Assembly: GCA_963760795.1 (NCBI GenBank)
Contig: CAVXEP010000012.1
Location: 382,185 to 446,184, forward strand
Source: an uncultured delta proteobacterium
GTDB taxonomy: Bacteria > Desulfobacterota > Binatia > UBA9968
Length of the DNA: 64,000 bases
Reading direction: 5' to 3'
The notes beneath the pieces are model-generated. The model was not told where the DNA came from. It ran no database searches and saw only the letters and a list, made by a program, of their open reading frames with translations. Position numbers and translations under genes: made by a program. This document shows positions 719 through 60,851 of this stretch, in pieces (positions within the stretch are counted from its first letter, which is position 1; each line of letters begins with the position of its first letter).

Positions 719-734
719 TGGCATCTCGCTTGCT
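719..734 (+). promoter_or_regulatory. Sigma-54 (-24/-12) promoter upstream of mlaC-like gene
   Basis: TGGCATCTCGCTTGCT, with GG and GC 12 nt apart as in TGGCAC-N5-TTGC, about 65 nt before the ATG. Confidence 0.65.
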
Positions 735-797: not shown

Positions 798-1412
798 ATG
801 AAGTCCTATTCCACGCACAAACGCTGGCTGTTTTTAGTTGGAGTCATCTATCTGTTCATCGCTCTACCGCTAAGCGCCGGAGTGCCGAGCGATCAGACGC
901 GGGCCACCATCGAAAAGGTTCTGTCGATTCTCAAAGACCCAGCCGCTAAATCAGAGCGACGCGAACGATTGCGACAAGTCATCTACCCAAGTTTCGACTT
1001 TGCCGAAATGGCCAAACGTTCTCTCGGAACCCACTGGCAACGGCGCAACCCGGCTGAACAGCAGGAATTCGTCAAGCTCTTCACGGATCTTGTCGAATCA
1101 TCCTATGTCGACGCGATCGAGTCCTATAATGGTGAAAAAGTTGTGGTCTCAAATGAGAAGCAGGACAAAGAATTCGCGGAAGTAAATACCAAGATCGTGA
1201 CAAAAAAAGGCGAAGAATTTGCCATCGATTATAAACTTCACCAGATCAGCGGCAGCTGGAAAATTTACGACGCCGTGATTGAAAATGTCAGCCTGGTCAA
1301 CAACTACCGTTCCCAATTCAACCGCGTTATCGCTAAGTCTTCCTACGAAGATCTCTTGAGTAAAATGAAAGATAAGCAGTTCGAAACACCGGGGAAAAAG
1401 GTAAAAACATAA
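798..1412 (+). CDS. mlaC: MlaC/Ttg2D-family periplasmic phospholipid-binding protein
   Basis: Signal peptide; FDFAEMAKRSLG..W, EFV.LF, WKIYD..IENVSLVNNYRSQF; GAGGAG RBS. Confidence 0.9.
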   Translation: MKSYSTHKRWLFLVGVIYLFIALPLSAGVPSDQTRATIEKVLSILKDPAAKSERRERLRQVIYPSFDFAEMAKRSLGTHWQRRNPAEQQEFVKLFTDLVESSYVDAIESYNGEKVVVSNEKQDKEFAEVNTKIVTKKGEEFAIDYKLHQISGSWKIYDAVIENVSLVNNYRSQFNRVIAKSSYEDLLSKMKDKQFETPGKKVKT

Positions 1413-8082: not shown

Positions 8083-8583
8083 CTACATGTTCGGCACCGG
8101 TGTCTCATCCAACAATTCAACTTGAACTTTGGCAACTCCGTTGTTTATCAGTCCAATGGCTTCGGCCGCCGCCTGCGATAAGTCGATCAACCGTCCTGCG
8201 ACATAGGGACCGCGGTCATTAATCAGAACCTCTATCGATTTCCCATTAGCCAAATGAGTAACTCTCGCCCTGCGCCCTAAAGGTATTGTCTTATGCGCCG
8301 CGGTGAACTTCGTTTGATCGAAAACCTCGCCGCTGGCGGTTTTTTTTCCGTGGAACCCCGGTCCGTACCATGACGCCGATCCGGTATAAACAGATGCCGG
8401 CGCTTCGGAGCTCGGTGTTCTGCGACTATCTGACTTCATAGGATTAGGTTGGCTTACTAAACTTGAATTGGAAATCTCTGAACCTGAAATTGAGCAACCT
8501 TGGGTCATCGACAGAGCCAACAACACCGTGACAATTCCAAGCAATCCGCCACAACTCGGTATCTGTGGTCTAGTCATTAACAT
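8083..8583 (-). CDS. rlpA: RlpA-family lytic transglycosylase lipoprotein
   Basis: GSASWYGPGFHGKKTASGE.FD...TAAHKT.P.G...INDRGPY..GRLIDLS..AA; lipobox TQGC; start uncertain (ORF to 8652). Confidence 0.9.
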   Translation of the reverse strand: MLMTRPQIPSCGGLLGIVTVLLALSMTQGCSISGSEISNSSLVSQPNPMKSDSRRTPSSEAPASVYTGSASWYGPGFHGKKTASGEVFDQTKFTAAHKTIPLGRRARVTHLANGKSIEVLINDRGPYVAGRLIDLSQAAAEAIGLINNGVAKVQVELLDETPVPNM

Positions 8584-9350
8584 GACTTCACCATTCCTCG
8601 GAGTCATTTTACCAACCTCAAAAAACGCTAAATTAAATAGAGAGACGGTCAACCGCCAATACTGCCTTTTTTACCCATCGATAACTCGGCCTTTTGTACA
8701 TTTCAGCGTTTTCTTGGCTTGCCGAATTAAGCGACTTGTTGAACTCTTCGCCTCTCTGGTTAGTTTTTTTGCGTGGCCAAGCTTATCTAACCTCCTCAGC
8801 TTTGTTATCCGCGCAATATGCGGCGCGCAATCTGTCGCCGCGATGTTTATAACGTTTGAGCAACAGGGGTGCCAACGCATCGTAAAATGCACATTGTCCT
8901 TTGATAACCGGGTTTTCGCTTGTTTATATCGACACGGAAATCTCCGCGATCACATAGAGCTTTTCCTGCAATTTGCCGGCAAATTGTCCGAGTTACTCAT
9001 ACCAAACTTTTGTCGGTGTAACTGTTCAAGAGTTTCTGCGCCGGAAGCGCAAAAACCATTGCCCGGCGAAAAACGTGAGTGACAGTCACTATCGCAAGGA
9101 AATCTCGGTTCTCGGTTATAACCAAAGTCACAACCAAGAGAGGGGTATCGGTCGATGTCAGTGGTTTTCCTTCAGCGGTTAGCAAAAAACTCTGACAAAC
9201 CAGCTCATCTAAGAATGTCGTGGCCGCTAAGTCACCTAAAGAATAGCGATATTGGACACGAAGATATCTGGCATATCTTTTGTACGTTAATAAACCCAAG
9301 ACTCATTTCACGGGGGCGAAAATAAACGCAAAATGAAAAGAGGAGGAGAA

Positions 9351-39021: not shown

Positions 39022-40307
39022 ATGGCAACCACAAGGGGCGCATCACTGGGAAATATTTCACTTGCGGGCGCAATTGCCGGTTTGATCGCGACGGAAATTG
39101 CCCTGCGCCACGGTGTCGTGGCGGGCGCGAGTTGGCAAGTCATTCTAAAAGCGTTCGAGGCGGCGACCATCGGCGGTTTCGCGGATTGGTTCGCCGTGAG
39201 CGCGTTGTTTCATGAAGTTCCCCTGCCGTTGATTCGCCGGCACACCAATATCATCGTCAAAAACCGCCGGCGAATCGTCGAAGGCATAGCCGACATCGTG
39301 CAGAACCGCTGGCTGGCGCCGCAGATCATTCGGGAGCATTTGGCTCTCTTCTCAGCCTCCCAATATGTTTTGCATTACCTCGGGCAAGAAGAAATTTCGA
39401 AAAGGTCCTCGCAATCATCCGCGGCATCATCGGGCAAGTCGGGCGCGGACTGGAAGCGTCTGAATTTGCCGGGTTTATCGAACGCGTGGTCAGAGACCAG
39501 CTGCGCGACATTCAATTCGCCAAACCGTTGGGCGGATGGTTCGGGCAATATCTACGACGAGGCGATCACCACCGCGTCTGGACCGCTCTACTCACCGCCG
39601 TGGAAAATGGCGCGCAAAGATCCGACTTGCAGCGACTCTTCCAAAGGATGATCGGCCGCGCACTGGACGAATACCAGGCGGCAGGTTTCTTGAAACAGCT
39701 CGGCATCCAAATGGCTCGACGCTTGAACCTCGTGAACGAAGAGCAGCTGGCTGCGATTCTCATAAGCAAAATAACCGAGGCCGCGCGCGAAGCCCGATCC
39801 GATCCGGGCCATCCACTGCGAACTTGGGTCGACGGCATTGTCATCGAATTCGCCGACAAGCTTGCTGGGGGCGACCAGGATGCGTTGGCGATTGTCGAGA
39901 GCGTGCGAATCGCGCTTATCGAAGCGGCGGGCTCCGGCGAAATACTCCAGCGCGCGTTGCGGCGACTCGGCGCAACCATGGAGGAAGGGTTTAAAAACGT
40001 CGATTCGGATCTCAATCGACTTCTGCGTCACGAGCTGCACAGGCGTCTCGAGCTTTTCCGAGTGAATATCCCGGCGCAAGAACAACTCGATGACTGGGTG
40101 AAAAACCTTGCGCTGGAGTTGGTCGAGCAGCGTCACGACATGATCGGGCAGATGGTCCGCGCCAGCCTGGAAAAACTATCGGATCTTGATTTGGTCAGGC
40201 AGATCGAAACCAAGGTCGGTCAGGATCTTCAATATATTCGATTGAATGGCGCGATCGTCGGCGGATTCGCAGGTGCCGTGCTGGCGATCATAAGAATGCT
40301 GACATGA
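39022..40307 (+). CDS. DUF445 (YjiN-like) membrane protein, split by a 1-nt frameshift near 39393
   Basis: EAATIGGFADWFAVSALF..P.P....HT.II.KN; C-terminal IETKVGQDLQYIRLNGAIVGG; adding one A gives EENFEKVL. Confidence 0.88.
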
Positions 40308-42607: not shown

Positions 42608-43075
42608 ATGGCCCGCAGACGTTTAAACATAGTCGATGAAATGGCGTTGACTCGCCTGCCGCCACCAGCGGCTAAGACACACGAGCCTGCACATGGAGAC
42701 TGGATCAGAATTCTGCGTGAGTCGCTGCGCATGACCCAGGCCGAATTGGCAGGCCGCGCCAAGATAACTCAATCGCATCTGGCCGGGATTGAAAGCGGCA
42801 AGACCGATCCGCAGGTCAGCACCCTGAAGCGTATCTTTGATGCGATGTCTTGCGATTTGGTTCTTGAGCCCAGACCCAGAAAGCCGATCAAAGAAGTGCT
42901 GCGCGGACGAGCGCGCAGTGTGGCTTTGAAACGCTTAAAACAATCCATGGGCACGATGGCCCTCGAACATCAGGCGCCGGAAGCGGACGTATTCAAGCAG
43001 CTCTTGGAAAAACATACCGATGAGATATTGACCGATCGGCGCGAAAAGCTGTGGCGACAGCCGACAGATGAATGA
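42608..43075 (+). CDS. Mobile mystery protein A-like XRE HTH protein
   Basis: P..G.WIR.LRE.L.MTQAELA, TL.RI..AM.C.LV, TMALE.Q; coupled to a Fic gene. Confidence 0.85.
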   Translation: MARRRLNIVDEMALTRLPPPAAKTHEPAHGDWIRILRESLRMTQAELAGRAKITQSHLAGIESGKTDPQVSTLKRIFDAMSCDLVLEPRPRKPIKEVLRGRARSVALKRLKQSMGTMALEHQAPEADVFKQLLEKHTDEILTDRREKLWRQPTDE

Positions 43076-43676
43076 CAAAACTAATATCCCCGGCGCCACT
43101 CCGGGAGACGACGCGTCGGGTCTAATTCAAAGGCAACTGACCGATCGCGCCTCCCGCAATGCCGCCGAGTTAGATGCGATTTCACGCGCATACAACAAGC
43201 ACATTTATCGAGCCCGGCGAAAAAGAGCCGGCGCCATATGGTTGACCGATCAGTTTATCCGCGCGGTCCATTACGACATGTTCGGTGAGATCTGGGAGTG
43301 GGCCGGAAAATATCGCACCGGTCCCGTCAACATCGGTGTCGACTTTCACCTTATCCCAGAACAGATAAAGTTGTTGTGCGGCGATTTCAGCTTCTGGAAC
43401 TCCGCCAAGAGTTCGATGCCGCCGCTTGAAATCGCTGCTCGGTTACAGAACCGGTTCACCCGAATTCATCCGTTTACCAATGGCAACGGCAGACACGCGC
43501 GACTCATCACCGACATTTACTTTCACTCGGTCAGACTTCCTCTGCCCAAATGGCCGCAGATTCAGCTCTTGTCGGAAGGCGATCAAATTCGCTCGCGATA
43601 TATCGGCGCGATGAGGACCGCGGATCAGGAAGATTATCGTGAGTTGATCGCATTCATGAAAGCGCTCGTTGAATAG
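43068..43676 (+). CDS. Mobile mystery protein B-like Fic-domain protein
   Basis: PGATP, MFG.IWEWAGKYR, HPFTNGNGRHARL Fic motif, YI.A.R.AD..DY..L. Confidence 0.9.
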   Translation: MNDKTNIPGATPGDDASGLIQRQLTDRASRNAAELDAISRAYNKHIYRARRKRAGAIWLTDQFIRAVHYDMFGEIWEWAGKYRTGPVNIGVDFHLIPEQIKLLCGDFSFWNSAKSSMPPLEIAARLQNRFTRIHPFTNGNGRHARLITDIYFHSVRLPLPKWPQIQLLSEGDQIRSRYIGAMRTADQEDYRELIAFMKALVE

Positions 43677-47676: not shown

Positions 47677-47834
47677 ATTCAACGTTCACTGCAAAGAATC
47701 CGCTCATTGCGTCAACACCACGAAATCCCAGTCCTTGAAATCTATTCTCTGGTGCTGAAGTCAGACTACGAATTCCCTTTAACGCCGTGAGCAGTCTCGA
47801 AGTGACCCGTCTCTTGTTACAATTTACGTTGGAT
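47677..47834 (-). other. Putative integron attC-like site
   Basis: Minus strand ATCCAAC (RYYYAAC)...GTTGAAT (GTTRRRY); arms ATCCAACGTAAATTGTAACA and ATTCAACGTTCACTGCAA-A pair with a central mismatch and one extra C; RBS and ATG follow directly. Confidence 0.45.
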
Positions 47835-47902
47835 TCGGCCGGCCGAAAAAATGTCAACTTCAACGCGCAACATAATAGCCATACTTAATCTTCGGTAAAC
47901 AA

Positions 47903-48784
47903 TTACCAGCGAAATGGATCCAGACGCGGTCCGACATGGTGCCACTCATCGCCGCCGTGATGTGCCTCATGCGCTAAGTGACCGCAGTACCAGACGACAA
48001 CATCTTGGCCATCGGTGTTCTCACCGTTGAGATAAGCAGGCAGATCATCATTGCTCGCCGATCCTTGGTTGCCCTGCCGGTCTTCGCTTCCTCGATAACG
48101 CATCACCCAAAGATCATGGCTCGAGAATCCGTCACCCACGCCGTCGTTGGGATCTGGGACTAGGAAATATCCATTACCTGCCGAGCGATCCATAACCGCC
48201 CAATGTCGATTCGTCGGCGGGTTTTTAACTCGCCTAATTTCTGAGAGTTTTTTGTGCCAGCCCGGACCATATCCGACATTCGGTGTAGTCGTGTTGAATT
48301 CATACACTGCGTCGCTCGCTGCGTCGTTTATGTCAAAATCGAATCGCCAATAGGCATGATGGCGATGATTCTGGTTGCATTGCAGACCTGCGCTGAACAG
48401 GCGAGGCAGCACTGTGCCCGATAATGTGAAACTCCATCGTTGACGCAAGCGATAAGACCCAATTCTATGATATGACTCTAAAGCGAGGACCGGCAGAAAT
48501 CCGCTTAAGTAAGTGTAAATGGAAACTTTTTTTCCATTAGACTGAACATCTGCATTACCAAAATGGAGAGGGTCTTTATACGGGCCGCAGGCGCTGCCAC
48601 CAGCAGGAGCGTCATATTGAACGCGCAATGATGGCAGGCTTGCTTTGTAAAATACTTGTCTGCCTCTATATCGGACACCGTGAATCGCTATCCCCTCGGG
48701 TTGTGAAGAATCCCCGAGAACATAAGAAAGCTGCCAGACCGGGGAACCTGCACTTGGCCAAGTAACAAATCCGCTTTCGCTCAT
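47903..48784 (-). CDS. Minimal copper-amine-oxidase-like catalytic domain
   Basis: EGIAIHGV, ASL..L.V.YD, PYKD, IGSYRL, HRHHAYWRFDFDI, DLWVMRY, LPAY....DGQDVVVWY....AH, VGP.L.P, all colinear with the Cu amine oxidase catalytic domain. Confidence 0.75.
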   Translation of the reverse strand: MSESGFVTWPSAGSPVWQLSYVLGDSSQPEGIAIHGVRYRGRQVFYKASLPSLRVQYDAPAGGSACGPYKDPLHFGNADVQSNGKKVSIYTYLSGFLPVLALESYHRIGSYRLRQRWSFTLSGTVLPRLFSAGLQCNQNHRHHAYWRFDFDINDAASDAVYEFNTTTPNVGYGPGWHKKLSEIRRVKNPPTNRHWAVMDRSAGNGYFLVPDPNDGVGDGFSSHDLWVMRYRGSEDRQGNQGSASNDDLPAYLNGENTDGQDVVVWYCGHLAHEAHHGGDEWHHVGPRLDPFRW

Positions 48785-49470
48785 CGCTCTTCTCCTTCCC
48801 CTGGTACGAATCCGGATCGGGTAACCTTTCCTTTATCAAGGTCTACGATCGCCACCAGTTGGGCGAGGCGCTCCTCTGGCTTAAAAAAACGCACATCCAT
48901 TAAACGTCGACTATATTCGGGATTTGTCGGGTCGTCGTTTGTGATCGCGATGACCCCCGAGATTAGATCGTCGCTCCAGTCCCTTCGCTTGTGTAACAAC
49001 CGGCGTGCGAGAGCAACAGCCTTTCGAATCTCTTCTTCCGTTGCGGCGGGTTGATACCGATAGTCTTCGACACCTACAACCCGACCACCCTTGTCGAGAA
49101 TCGCTTCGACAGCTATTTGGTTTGAATAGCTGTAGAACATTGCACGAGTCACCGTAGATTTTCGCTTTACATCCTCGGAGGTACGAACGCCAATTGACAC
49201 AAACTTTTCACCTAGAAGTTTCTTGACAGTTGGAACCCGCGCAGCCAGCTTTTGTAAGTCTTGAATGCGCGCTGGGGTAAGGGCTGGCTTGAGGTCTCTA
49301 GCGGTAAAATCCTCCCGTTTGGAGATTTCTGGCGGAATTCCCACGTCGCCGCGTTCTCGAAGCGGTGGAATTGTCACAGCTGGGAATTCGTAGATTGGAG
49401 ATTGATCGCTTTGAGGCGTAGGAAGCTTTTTTTCAGCGTCTCGGCGACTGCCCGGTTTCTTGATAGCCAT
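48781..49470 (-). CDS. Protein resembling copper amine oxidase N2/N3 domains
   Basis: EAILD...VVGV....QPAATEEE...A..LA, RRL, AIVDL..GKV; ATGA overlap with the catalytic-domain gene. Confidence 0.6.
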   Translation of the reverse strand: MAIKKPGSRRDAEKKLPTPQSDQSPIYEFPAVTIPPLRERGDVGIPPEISKREDFTARDLKPALTPARIQDLQKLAARVPTVKKLLGEKFVSIGVRTSEDVKRKSTVTRAMFYSYSNQIAVEAILDKGGRVVGVEDYRYQPAATEEEIRKAVALARRLLHKRRDWSDDLISGVIAITNDDPTNPEYSRRLMDVRFFKPEERLAQLVAIVDLDKGKVTRSGFVPGEGEER

Positions 49471-49563
49471 CGTTTACCTCTCCTTGAATTTGTGAACATG
49501 TATTGAAGTCGCCTGATCGTCTCCGTATCGAAGATCGTTACTGCATCCTTCACTCGTACTGAG

Positions 49564-49579
49564 AGCAACCAGAATGCCA
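49564..49579 (-). promoter_or_regulatory. Sigma-54 promoter of the amine-oxidase-like operon
   Basis: Minus strand TGGCATTCTGGTTGCT, spacing 12; nearby palindrome GGTTAAC-N6-GTTAACC at 49604-49623. Confidence 0.65.
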
Positions 49580-59309: not shown

Positions 59310-60851
59310 ATGGCGCAAACTAATTCTGCAATGAAAAATCTAAAAATATTTGTAAGCTACTCACACGACGATGGCCGGATCGCAACCGCGCTGTCAAATC
59401 TCCTGCAACTGGCGTTCGGGCCGGCATTGACGGAAGTCTTTCTTGATAAAACATCTATCTCTTTTGGCGCCAACATAAAGGCGACAGTCACCGATGCCTT
59501 GAGAAACGCCGATGTGCTTATAGCGGTAAGTGCCGGCGCCCAGCCTGCAAGCGCCCTAAGCTGGCCTGGTTTCGAAATCGGCATGTTCTCCGGATACTGG
59601 GACAATGAGCACTACAAGCAAGGGCCCCACAAGGATAGAGAGAAACGCGGCGTCATGGGCCAGGTTGTTGTACTGAGTAATGAAAAAATCCCGTTAGGTC
59701 CAGAGGAAGGGCAGAGGCCTGTTAATCTGGGAATATCGGAAGATAGGCTATCTGGGGGAGAAAGCGAGGAAGAGTTAAAAAAATCCCGCACTGCTGCCGT
59801 TGTCGAAAACAGCGAGCTTCTGGAGTTTCTCCAGGATATCGAAGAACTAGTGAAGGATGAACCGGATTACGTTCAGTTCCAAAACGATCGGGACAAAACT
59901 CTTCCTGAACTCGTCCGCAATTTTAAGTTTCAGGTATTTGATGTTTTAAGAAACCGCGTTAGGAGTAGATCAAAGCCCACCAAGCAGCTGATAGTGCGGA
60001 CCAAAGGGAGAGGCTCCTCGTTGACAGACGAAACAAAGATCATTTCGGTTGCTGGGGCTAGTGAAATCTTCGGGAAAAGTGAGGGCGATCCCAGGCTTTT
60101 CAAGAAAACAGACGACGGCTTTCCCGGTAGCGAGCGTTACGAGGCAGCCTGGGGTCAATTTAAAACATCTGTCAAGGATCATCGGTATGGGGCCTATTGG
60201 TGCGGGGTCATCGAACAGGCTGTCATTGGGTCGACAGCGATCGGTGCCGAATTGGACTCGAATTTGGTGCTCATTTCTAATAGAGAGCAGCGATATCGAA
60301 TTATTGCAGCAACCGTTACCACCTACTTCAACAACGATTCGGAGGTTAGCCTTTATCTGATCGAGGCCCTTCAGAGACGTCAGGGCGGCGATGCTGAGAC
60401 CTCCAACCTGCTCAATTGTATCACCATTATATTGAGGTTCAGGTTCGCGTTTCTGGAAGGAACGAGCCCCTTTTACTGGCGAAACTTTGGTTCGTCGGCC
60501 GTTGTTGGCCCGAGGGATCTGTTGATGGAACTCGACTATCTGAAGGGCGAAGCCACAAATGCGAACCTAGAAAAGCCAGGCGCCTGGGAAGATTTTATGA
60601 GTAACGAACAGCTGACAGAAATGATGAGAGTTTGGAACGAAGTAGACATAGAATTGCGGAAAGCCTGTTGTGCCGCAATCGCGCAACGAAATGGCGTGCC
60701 GGCTACGGCAGAACTGACTGAAAAGATTGTTATACAGCTAAAGAAGATGTTTGATGAAGTAAAGCCATTCAACACCTTTCTTGGTATTGCGATTACTCAG
60801 CAATTATTAACCATATTTCAACAGGACACCACCAAACCAGTTCACACCTAA
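59310..60851 (+). CDS. TIR-domain protein with long uncharacterised C-terminus
   Basis: KIFVSYSHDD, VFLD..SI..G, AL..AD.LI.V, SWPGFEIG (conserved Glu); start uncertain. Confidence 0.8.
   Translation: MAQTNSAMKNLKIFVSYSHDDGRIATALSNLLQLAFGPALTEVFLDKTSISFGANIKATVTDALRNADVLIAVSAGAQPASALSWPGFEIGMFSGYWDNEHYKQGPHKDREKRGVMGQVVVLSNEKIPLGPEEGQRPVNLGISEDRLSGGESEEELKKSRTAAVVENSELLEFLQDIEELVKDEPDYVQFQNDRDKTLPELVRNFKFQVFDVLRNRVRSRSKPTKQLIVRTKGRGSSLTDETKIISVAGASEIFGKSEGDPRLFKKTDDGFPGSERYEAAWGQFKTSVKDHRYGAYWCGVIEQAVIGSTAIGAELDSNLVLISNREQRYRIIAATVTTYFNNDSEVSLYLIEALQRRQGGDAETSNLLNCITIILRFRFAFLEGTSPFYWRNFGSSAVVGPRDLLMELDYLKGEATNANLEKPGAWEDFMSNEQLTEMMRVWNEVDIELRKACCAAIAQRNGVPATAELTEKIVIQLKKMFDEVKPFNTFLGIAITQQLLTIFQQDTTKPVHT

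Follow-up and report, generated by a model that had tools for sequence, protein, structure and literature searches.

Two adjacent genes on the minus strand of a 64,000-nucleotide stretch of DNA from an uncultured delta proteobacterium (contig CAVXEP010000012.1; Desulfobacterota, Binatia, UBA9968), hereafter the window, encode a partner protein of 229 amino acids (aa) and a catalytic chain of 293 aa. By sequence and predicted fold, the pair is a member of the copper amine oxidase (CuAO) superfamily, and we favor, with moderate confidence, the reading that it constitutes a compact two-chain copper/tyrosine-quinone amine oxidase, whose cofactor, substrate and role we infer. As described in the excerpt of PMC3382800, structurally characterized CuAOs are homodimers of 70–80 kDa chains with a fixed N-Y-D/E motif, and the classical topaquinone (TPQ) enzyme combines a T-x-x-N-Y-D/E consensus with domains D2, D3 and D4 in a homodimer with two β-hairpin arms. 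The pair departs from these classical TPQ enzymes in the N-Y-D/E consensus and in the single 70–80 kDa chain with arms, and it seems to represent a large family of compact CuAOs that has never been studied before. A first-pass annotation, made from the letters of the window alone, had proposed a heteromeric copper/tyrosine enzyme family at this locus; the split loci, the fused relatives, the predicted complex and the conserved copper and tyrosine residues described below are in keeping with that proposal.

Fold and two-chain organization of the pair

The catalytic chain scored 47.8 bits (E 1.3e-12) with the Pfam family PF01179 (CuAO), whose cut-off is 27, and the source genome contained no other match to this family. 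A sequence search of the PDB returned the Arthrobacter enzyme (AGAO) with an E value of 3e-4, and a profile of the chain built on 71 relatives found the E. coli and Arthrobacter enzymes at E values of 1e-11 to 1e-10. An AlphaFold model computed on the same 71-relative alignment reached a mean predicted local distance difference test (pLDDT) score of 95.4 and displayed the antiparallel β-sandwich of the CuAO D4 domain. The best Foldseek matches of this model were all copper amine oxidases (E ~3e-15; query template-modeling score 0.72–0.75). VIA-align superposed 275 of its 293 residues on residues 235–616 of the Arthrobacter enzyme with a Z score of 29 and 2.4 Å root-mean-square deviation (rmsd), and gave Z scores of 25–27 against the E. 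coli, yeast, plant and mammalian CuAOs (26.7 for E. coli TynA). Alignment of the family profile with five canonical CuAOs by hhalign yielded a probability of 99.1% (E 5.8e-19) over 288 columns. The domain is shorter than the Arthrobacter D4 stretch that it spans (293 aa versus about 382), about 107 residues of which have no counterpart. In the hhalign comparison, its largest gaps relative to canonical enzymes measure about 48 residues, in the segment from the base loop to the cofactor tyrosine, and about 20 residues, in that from the tyrosine to the HxH motif. With the exception of the exact placement of D71, both the by-eye alignment to CuAOs and the long loop deletions recorded in the first-pass annotation were recovered by profile and structure comparison.

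The partner belongs to no database family, and the catalytic chain is named either "Cu2+-containing amine oxidase" or "hypothetical". Searches of Pfam (even at E values up to 1), of NCBIfam and of PDB sequences returned no match for the partner, and neither PF02727 nor PF02728, the N2 and N3 families, was found for it in the Pfam search. Its model (pLDDT 87) comprises a disordered, Pro-rich N-terminus of about 60 residues, with low confidence at residues 1–60, followed by two α/β domains that appear as two helix-plus-four-strand units. All of the best Foldseek matches of this model were again copper amine oxidases (E 1e-5), and VIA-align placed residues 61–226 on residues 12–196 of the Arthrobacter enzyme and 96–285 of the E. 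coli enzyme (Z 8.1, rmsd 3.7–3.9 Å, 160–161 residues). Single PepSY-like domains received a VIA score similar to that of the D2+D3 match, but over just ~60 residues. A Z score of 8 is middling by itself; the D2/D3 match is independently supported because the hhalign comparison of the partner profile with the five canonical CuAOs, which aligned partner residues 62–222 with canonical residues 18–197, gave a probability of 93.9% (E 1.6e-7). Against TynA alone, the same profile scored weakly (probability 1.9%). In the ESM Atlas, the clusters nearest to the partner were annotated "hypothetical protein" (0.92), and clusters bearing N2/N3 followed at 0.80–0.86, which we treat as a lead. Across 49 partner sequences, P141, R189 and D210 were invariant. 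Taken together, the fold and profile matches suggest that the partner is the equivalent of the D2+D3 (N2/N3) domains of CuAOs, the resemblance to which had been noted at first pass.

We then surveyed 80 related loci from species-representative genomes. Separate chains were encoded at 58 of the 80 loci, and both parts lay in one frame at the other 22; a partner gene was located by tblastn directly upstream and on the same strand in 46/80. In the closer clade, most loci show an overlap of 4 or 8 nt between the two genes; in Nitrospira, a gap of 33–127 nt lies between them. Among longer homologues of the catalytic chain, the partner profile matched the N-terminal region in 22 of 23. In a quick maximum-likelihood tree, 20 rows formed a fused clade and 51 rows a split clade, and the long branch between the two had full support. 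Of the 51 rows in the split clade, 49 were split, and the tree requires only two changes in the fused state. The first-pass annotation had named homologues that are always fused and carry a canonical N-Y-D as an outcome that would overturn its proposal, and the survey gave the opposite picture, with split loci in the majority and an x-Y-R motif in the fused relatives as well.

Both fused rows of the split clade belong to Nocardia. In N. crassostreae (locus L018, 5158–6843) and N. blacklockiae (locus L019, 5293–6840), the two parts form one frame, and sister Nocardia loci have a 4-nt overlap; the two fused loci could reflect re-fusion or sequencing error.

These data bear on the explanation that a normally single gene has been divided by a frameshift or an assembly error, or that the pair is a decaying pseudoenzyme. 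The existence of fused relatives would be compatible with such an artefact, as would the loss of two copper ligands in a few relatives and the prospect that one altered base at the ATGA junction could join or separate the two genes, as the two Nocardia loci illustrate. Nevertheless, split loci predominate and are gathered in one clade, the downstream gene carries its own strong ribosome-binding site, both frames of the window copy are intact with all catalytic residues present, and relatives retain 55–70% identity across phyla. We therefore give this explanation very little credence, and the earlier judgment that the split is real stands. The stop codon of the partner gene and the start codon of the catalytic gene share an ATGA, which would couple their translation, as read at first pass. 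A hydrophobic signal-like stretch was seen by eye in the translated N-terminus of neither protein, in agreement with the earlier statement that no signal peptide is present.

Prediction of the complex between the partner and the catalytic chain, made without partner residues 1–60, scored 0.79, compared with 0.21 for the best of three controls; the mark was reached by 58/80 solved complexes and 2/110 mismatched pairs. Contacts agreed to at least 83% between runs, and the pLDDT of the partner was at least 83. The predicted interface takes in catalytic-chain residues 67–76 and 107–112, around D71 and Y111. Because CuAO structures have already been solved, this pass may mirror the likeness of the pair to known CuAOs and need not count as independent evidence. 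A D2–D3 arrangement attached to D4 emerges from the fold overlay, the fused relatives and the predicted complex alike. Where canonical enzymes have a single chain of 70–80 kDa, this locus has two, and as judged from gene layout, fused relatives and modeling, the partner and the catalytic chain are probably one enzyme in two chains.

Active site, proposed reaction and points against it

The residues singled out at first pass (Y57, D71, S110-Y111-R112, H140, H142, H272 and a C-terminal His-rich stretch) were all found at those positions of the catalytic chain, and we assessed their conservation in an alignment of 215 family sequences, which included 207 distinct ones (Table 1). Y57 aligns with the conserved active-site tyrosine of the Arthrobacter enzyme and TynA; this second active-site tyrosine of CuAOs hydrogen-bonds to O4 of TPQ. 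Y111, a tyrosine in 215/215 sequences, falls at the aligned position of the TPQ tyrosine in E. coli TynA. H140 (213/215) and H142 (215/215) align with the HxH motif of TynA and are followed by H143 (213/215), and H272 (213/215), close to H269 (214/215), corresponds in the alignments to the distal His ligand in TynA and in the Arthrobacter enzyme. The assignment of these residues as copper ligands and a tyrosine pair is supported by their alignment with the canonical counterparts and by their invariance or near-invariance in the family, and H140, H142 and H272 are predicted to supply the three-histidine copper site. D71 occupies the expected loop, in which it is the sole invariant acidic residue. 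R147, D149, E182 and W265 were each present in 215/215 sequences and D151 in 214/215; D149, D151 and E182 align with D533, D535 and E573 of TynA (mature numbering), which belong to the secondary metal sites of that enzyme.

Variation within the wider family is informative for the copper ligands. In the 150 best representative clusters, three sequences have Arg at position 140, and each of them also lacks His at 272 (3/3), as expected if both residues bind the same metal. In a few fused relatives, namely P0138, P0143 and these three clusters, H140 is replaced by Arg together with replacement of H272 by Arg, Lys or Phe, and the tyrosine is kept; these relatives are possibly copper-free pseudoenzymes. 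Relative to classical CuAOs, the additional conserved residues are H143, H269, H282, W146 and W265. The extra His-rich tail described at first pass held up for H269 and for H282 (201/215 in the split clade), and not for H275, H276 and H283, which vary. Covariation between H143 and H269, which could have pointed to a second metal site, was sought and not found, and neither histidine is kept across the wider family.

Table 1 Positions in the window of the two genes, their expression signals and the presumed active-site codons (residue counts among 215 family sequences)
Feature	Position	Strand	Basis or remark
Partner gene, 229 aa	48781..49470	minus	open reading frame (ORF) list
Catalytic gene, 293 aa	47903..48784	minus	ORF list
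ATGA stop/start overlap, partner stop and catalytic-gene ATG	48781–48784	minus	sequence reading
Ribosome-binding site GGAAGGAG of the catalytic gene, within the end of the partner gene	48792–48799	minus	7 nt before ATG at 48784
Ribosome-binding site AAGGAG of the partner gene	49480–49485	minus	9 nt before ATG at 49470
Sigma-54-type promoter motif TGGCATTCTGGTTGCT, TGGCAT-N5-TTGCT	49564–49579	minus	exact motif match only
Codon Y57, second active-site Tyr	48614..48616	minus	Tyr in 215/215
Codon D71, presumed catalytic base	48572..48574	minus	Asp in 215/215
Codons S110-Y111-R112, presumed cofactor Tyr, non-canonical x-Y-[R/K/H]	48449..48457	minus	
Codons H140-R-H142-H143, HxH copper ligands and family-specific third His	48356..48367	minus	
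Codons H269-L-A-H272, third copper ligand (H272) and family-specific H269	47969..47980	minus	

In the mechanism that we propose, one mRNA would give rise to both chains, made in step by virtue of the ATGA overlap and their own ribosome-binding sites, and the chains would then bind each other. The partner would supply the D2/D3-type α/β domains and the catalytic chain the D4 β-sandwich, with the D3-like part of the partner predicted to rest against the active-site loops. Cu(II) would be held by H140, H142 and H272, and Y111 would be oxidized by copper and O2 to a topaquinone-type quinone. With D71 as the base, a primary amine would be converted to an aldehyde, ammonia and H2O2. In the source genome, the operon would be an accessory unit gained by horizontal transfer that lies behind a sigma-54-type promoter, and use of amines as a nitrogen source would fit a promoter of this type.

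Several observations weigh against this amine oxidase reading. First, the two largest deletions fall in the regions from which the dimer-forming β-hairpin arms of canonical CuAOs presumably emerge, so the pair must depart from canonical enzymes in its quaternary structure and in how the active site is walled at the back. Second, both profile alignments place D71 three residues before the canonical base Asp, and a phmmer search of the PDB with catalytic-chain residues 40–135, run for the placement of D71, returned just chance matches to PsbU; the earlier assignment of D71 as the base has its invariance and its loop in its favor and its register against it, and D71 is a putative equivalent of the canonical base. 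Third, the neighboring genes vary from locus to locus and give no clue to the substrate. Fourth, none of the 31 matches to the sigma-54 activator domain found in the genome (E ≤ 0.001) lies inside the window, so no dedicated activator is encoded there. Finally, the T-x-x-N-Y-D/E consensus is absent from the family: the residue after the tyrosine was Arg in 163, Lys in 31 and His in 21 of the 215 sequences and never Asp or Glu, and the residue before it was Asn in just 10/215. The replacement of N-Y-D by S-Y-R seen at first pass is accordingly not a peculiarity of the window copy, since x-Y-[R/K/H] runs throughout the 215 sequences, and W-Y-R is the prevalent form in the 150 best representative clusters of the wider family. 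According to the excerpt of PMC3382800, the yeast enzyme HPAO-1 retained 5–10% TPQ when its Asn was replaced with Ala, and biogenesis became tenfold slower when Gln took the place of the Glu. Because such flank mutations impair TPQ biogenesis in HPAO-1, the flanks of this family probably mark a real functional difference, and by this analogy formation of normal topaquinone in the x-Y-[R/K/H] family is not assured.

Family architecture, genomic context and expression

The family is large and multi-phylum. A search for proteins of similar length returned 286 at E ≤ 1e-3, named "Cu2+-containing amine oxidase", "hypothetical protein" or nothing, and a pattern scan in which each species was represented by a single genome gave 337 stretches confirmed as relatives by tblastn. 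When the profile was run against 1.84 billion representative sequences, 1780 clusters (50% identity) matched at E ≤ 1e-3, and 427 still did so at E ≤ 1e-30. Within the 150 best clusters, 62 carried an N-terminal fusion with a recognizable partner domain, 16 had an N-terminal extension of at least 150 aa that the partner profile did not recognize, 47 consisted of the catalytic domain alone, and 25 combined the catalytic domain with a C-terminal extension of at least 100 aa. We scanned 25 proteins of unusual length or domain position, mostly from the last group. The extra domains in most of those with a recognized one were Ig, PKD, fn3, CBM_4_9, ricin-B lectin, laminin-G, dockerin and a type IX secretion tail, and signal peptides were seen by eye in most of the extended proteins scanned. 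In Nitrospira, the N-terminus of the partner is lipoprotein-like and that of the catalytic chain signal-like, and localization therefore varies across the family. Tandem fused-type paralogues were found in Brevibacillus dissolubilis (locus L042, 3212–4888 and 5128–6858), where the upstream one, a 559-aa protein, also matches PF01179.

This diversity, combined with the altered tyrosine flanks, raises the alternative that the same fold and copper site serve another chemistry, with a different tyrosine-derived cofactor (a cross-linked quinone or a radical site) or with groups borne on macromolecules, such as peptidyl-lysine and cell-wall or polysaccharide-bound groups, in place of small free amines. 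The flanks differ systematically from N-Y-D/E and matter for TPQ biogenesis in the excerpt of PMC3382800; the near-invariant extra histidines H143, H269 and H282 of the split clade also speak for this alternative, although H143 and H269 neither vary jointly nor persist in the wider family. The 25 of 150 clusters with C-terminal extensions, which often comprise binding or secretion domains and have signal peptides by eye, would likewise suit macromolecular targets, but fusion to a binding domain tells the site of action and not the reaction, and the window copy is cytoplasmic and has no targeting domain. A plasmid copy in Variovorax adjoins a gene annotated as galactose-oxidase-like. All residues needed for classical CuAO chemistry are kept, and on balance we regard other chemistry as an unlikely, though substantive, alternative. 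In its most developed form, the compact x-Y-[R/K/H] proteins would be a separate enzyme class, with a cofactor unlike ordinary topaquinone or tuned for another job; members would oxidize groups on macromolecules or surfaces, as suggested by the lectin, CBM, Ig and type IX secretion domains of the secreted forms, and the split form in the cytoplasm would act as a mobile module with a function beyond simple amine catabolism. We hold this separate-class proposal, too, to be possible but doubtful, and retain the amine oxidase reading.

The distribution of the pair is patchy. It was carried by 0/24 same-genus and 0/16 same-order genomes among 40 relatives of the source genome, and the window copy instead groups with metagenome-assembled genomes of Actinomycetales and Acidimicrobiia (99% support). 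Local guanine-plus-cytosine content is ~0.50, as against 0.56–0.63 in the flanks. Relatives also occur in six plasmid records. On a conjugative plasmid of Bacillus wiedmannii, the copy adjoins a group II intron, an integrase and an IS6 transposase, and the fused copy on the Variovorax plasmid adjoins an integrase in addition to the gene mentioned above. On the B. wiedmannii plasmid pFCC41-3-257K (locus L084, 4047–6832), the match falls in two pieces directly after the group II intron reverse transcriptase gene; this copy looks disrupted, because just its last third is annotated as a coding sequence and because the match is in two pieces.

Clustering of 853 ORFs from the 80 loci revealed no conserved neighbor outside the Nitrospira clade and none that recurs across phyla, and the PhyH, SH3 and 136-aa neighbors of the pair in the window recurred at 0/80 loci. 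At 13–17 loci of the Nitrospira clade (for example L066 and L050), the pair is preceded by three to four same-strand ORFs of 173–401 aa; these recurrent ORFs matched no Pfam family, and the nearest of them abuts the partner start. Neighbors in other genomes include restriction-modification parts and Uma2, HTH-TPR, HEAT, WD40 and Barstar proteins.

Such surroundings could suggest that amine oxidation here is non-nutritional and that the pair is a mobile stress, defense or antagonism module in which the product (H2O2 or aldehyde) is the point. The absence from close relatives, the affinity to copies in other phyla, the deviating base composition and the plasmid copies beside integrases, insertion sequences and a group II intron would all accord with mobility, and the restriction-modification and Barstar-type neighbors, along with an HTH/Fic pair and a TIR-domain protein in the window, with conflict. 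However, accessory metabolic genes of any kind commonly lie in islands, no neighbor is shared across phyla, and PADLOC-DB 2.0 returned 0 families at E values up to 1 for both proteins and three neighbors. We consider a non-nutritional role improbable.

The Fic pair lies at 42608–43676 on the plus strand, where an HTH_3 protein (155 aa) overlaps a Fic/DOC protein (202 aa) in a layout that resembles a toxin–antitoxin or regulator/Fic pair. A 513-aa protein at 59310–60851 (plus strand) resembles TIR_2 weakly at its N-terminus, with 25.9 bits where the cut-off is 28. The presence of both in the window suggests a variable region. DUF445 is spread over two overlapping ORFs at 39022–40307 (plus strand), with 39022–39651 covering profile positions 2–99 and 39486–40307 covering positions 113–366, and this split may be a frameshift or assembly error. 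A possible link to graspetides was considered in view of a statement, in an excerpt of PMC13097080, that one group of graspetides is found together with "a copper amine oxidase". This lead was dropped because Pfam scans of the checked window genes (35–64 kb) and of 114 flanking genes listed no ATP-grasp family.

The sigma-54-type promoter proposed at first pass was located as an exact motif 94–109 nt upstream of the partner ATG (Table 1). The pattern TGGCAY-N5-TTGCW occurs at three sites in the window against 0.18 expected, a number reached in 0/100 shuffles, and each of the three sites faces an ORF. The genome carries rpoN, the sigma-54 gene, and 26 of its activator-domain matches exceed 200 bits. 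The other two sites, both exact, are at 719–734 (plus strand), 64 nt before the ORF 798..1412, and at 8859–8874 (minus strand), ~207 nt before the ORF 8083..8652.

Contigs of 131–209 nt from soil metatranscriptomes (four libraries from four studies), mostly at least 99% alike, map to both genes. They leave positions 47800–47991 and 48696–48951 and the gene junction uncovered, and none bridges the junction. Since metatranscriptome libraries can contain DNA and no contig spans the junction, these matches provide a weak hint that both genes are transcribed in soil.

Relation to known copper amine oxidases

CuAOs are a classic example of enzymes that make their quinone cofactor themselves, and the window pair shares several features with AGAO and TynA. 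The D4 β-sandwich superposes on the two enzymes with Z scores of 29 and 26.7 and rmsd values of 2.4–2.6 Å, D2/D3-like domains are present, and the cofactor tyrosine, the HxH motif with the distal His and the second tyrosine occupy aligned positions. AGAO, like the window pair, is also cytoplasmic. In contrast, sequence identity is just ~15–23%, AGAO and TynA are single chains with N-Y-D/E at the cofactor site, and the present family has x-Y-[R/K/H] and, in the window, two chains. The partner differs further in its Pro-rich N-terminal tail. Within this tail (residues 1–60; window 49291–49470), P19 is nearly invariant and a PP motif recurs across the split clade.

Closer to the pair are fused compact relatives of 515–600 aa from Acidobacteriota, Rubrobacteraceae, Chloroflexota and others, all unnamed or "hypothetical". 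They have the same compact D4, a W-Y-R motif, the same set of histidines and a partner-like N-terminal region, but they are single chains, have a ~30-residue insertion after the base loop and are 33–39% identical to the window catalytic chain. The lysyl oxidase of Pichia pastoris (PPLO) resembles the catalytic chain in its D4 fold (Z 25.7, rmsd 2.6 Å, 276 residues) and differs in being a single chain of 735–787 aa in structure listings. PPLO acts on peptidyl lysine and shows that the CuAO fold is able to take macromolecular amines. All of the 50 best structure entries, re-checked with VIA among the Foldseek matches, are full-length enzymes, and no description of a short or split CuAO was found in the full-text literature searched, a corpus that leaves most subscription journals outside its coverage. 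The first-pass annotation had allowed that the family might already be characterized, and this literature contained no paper on it.

If the amine oxidase reading is true, the pair would show the minimal needs of the CuAO fold for copper binding and tyrosine oxidation, at about two-thirds of canonical size and in two chains, in a compact enzyme that apparently does without dimer arms and has a basic residue in place of the acidic one. It would also offer a small scaffold for engineering. More broadly, because the family is large, spans many phyla and includes secreted forms with domains that bind carbohydrates or surfaces, an entire group of soil-bacterial copper oxidases, those of Nitrospira among them, may act on unfamiliar substrates.

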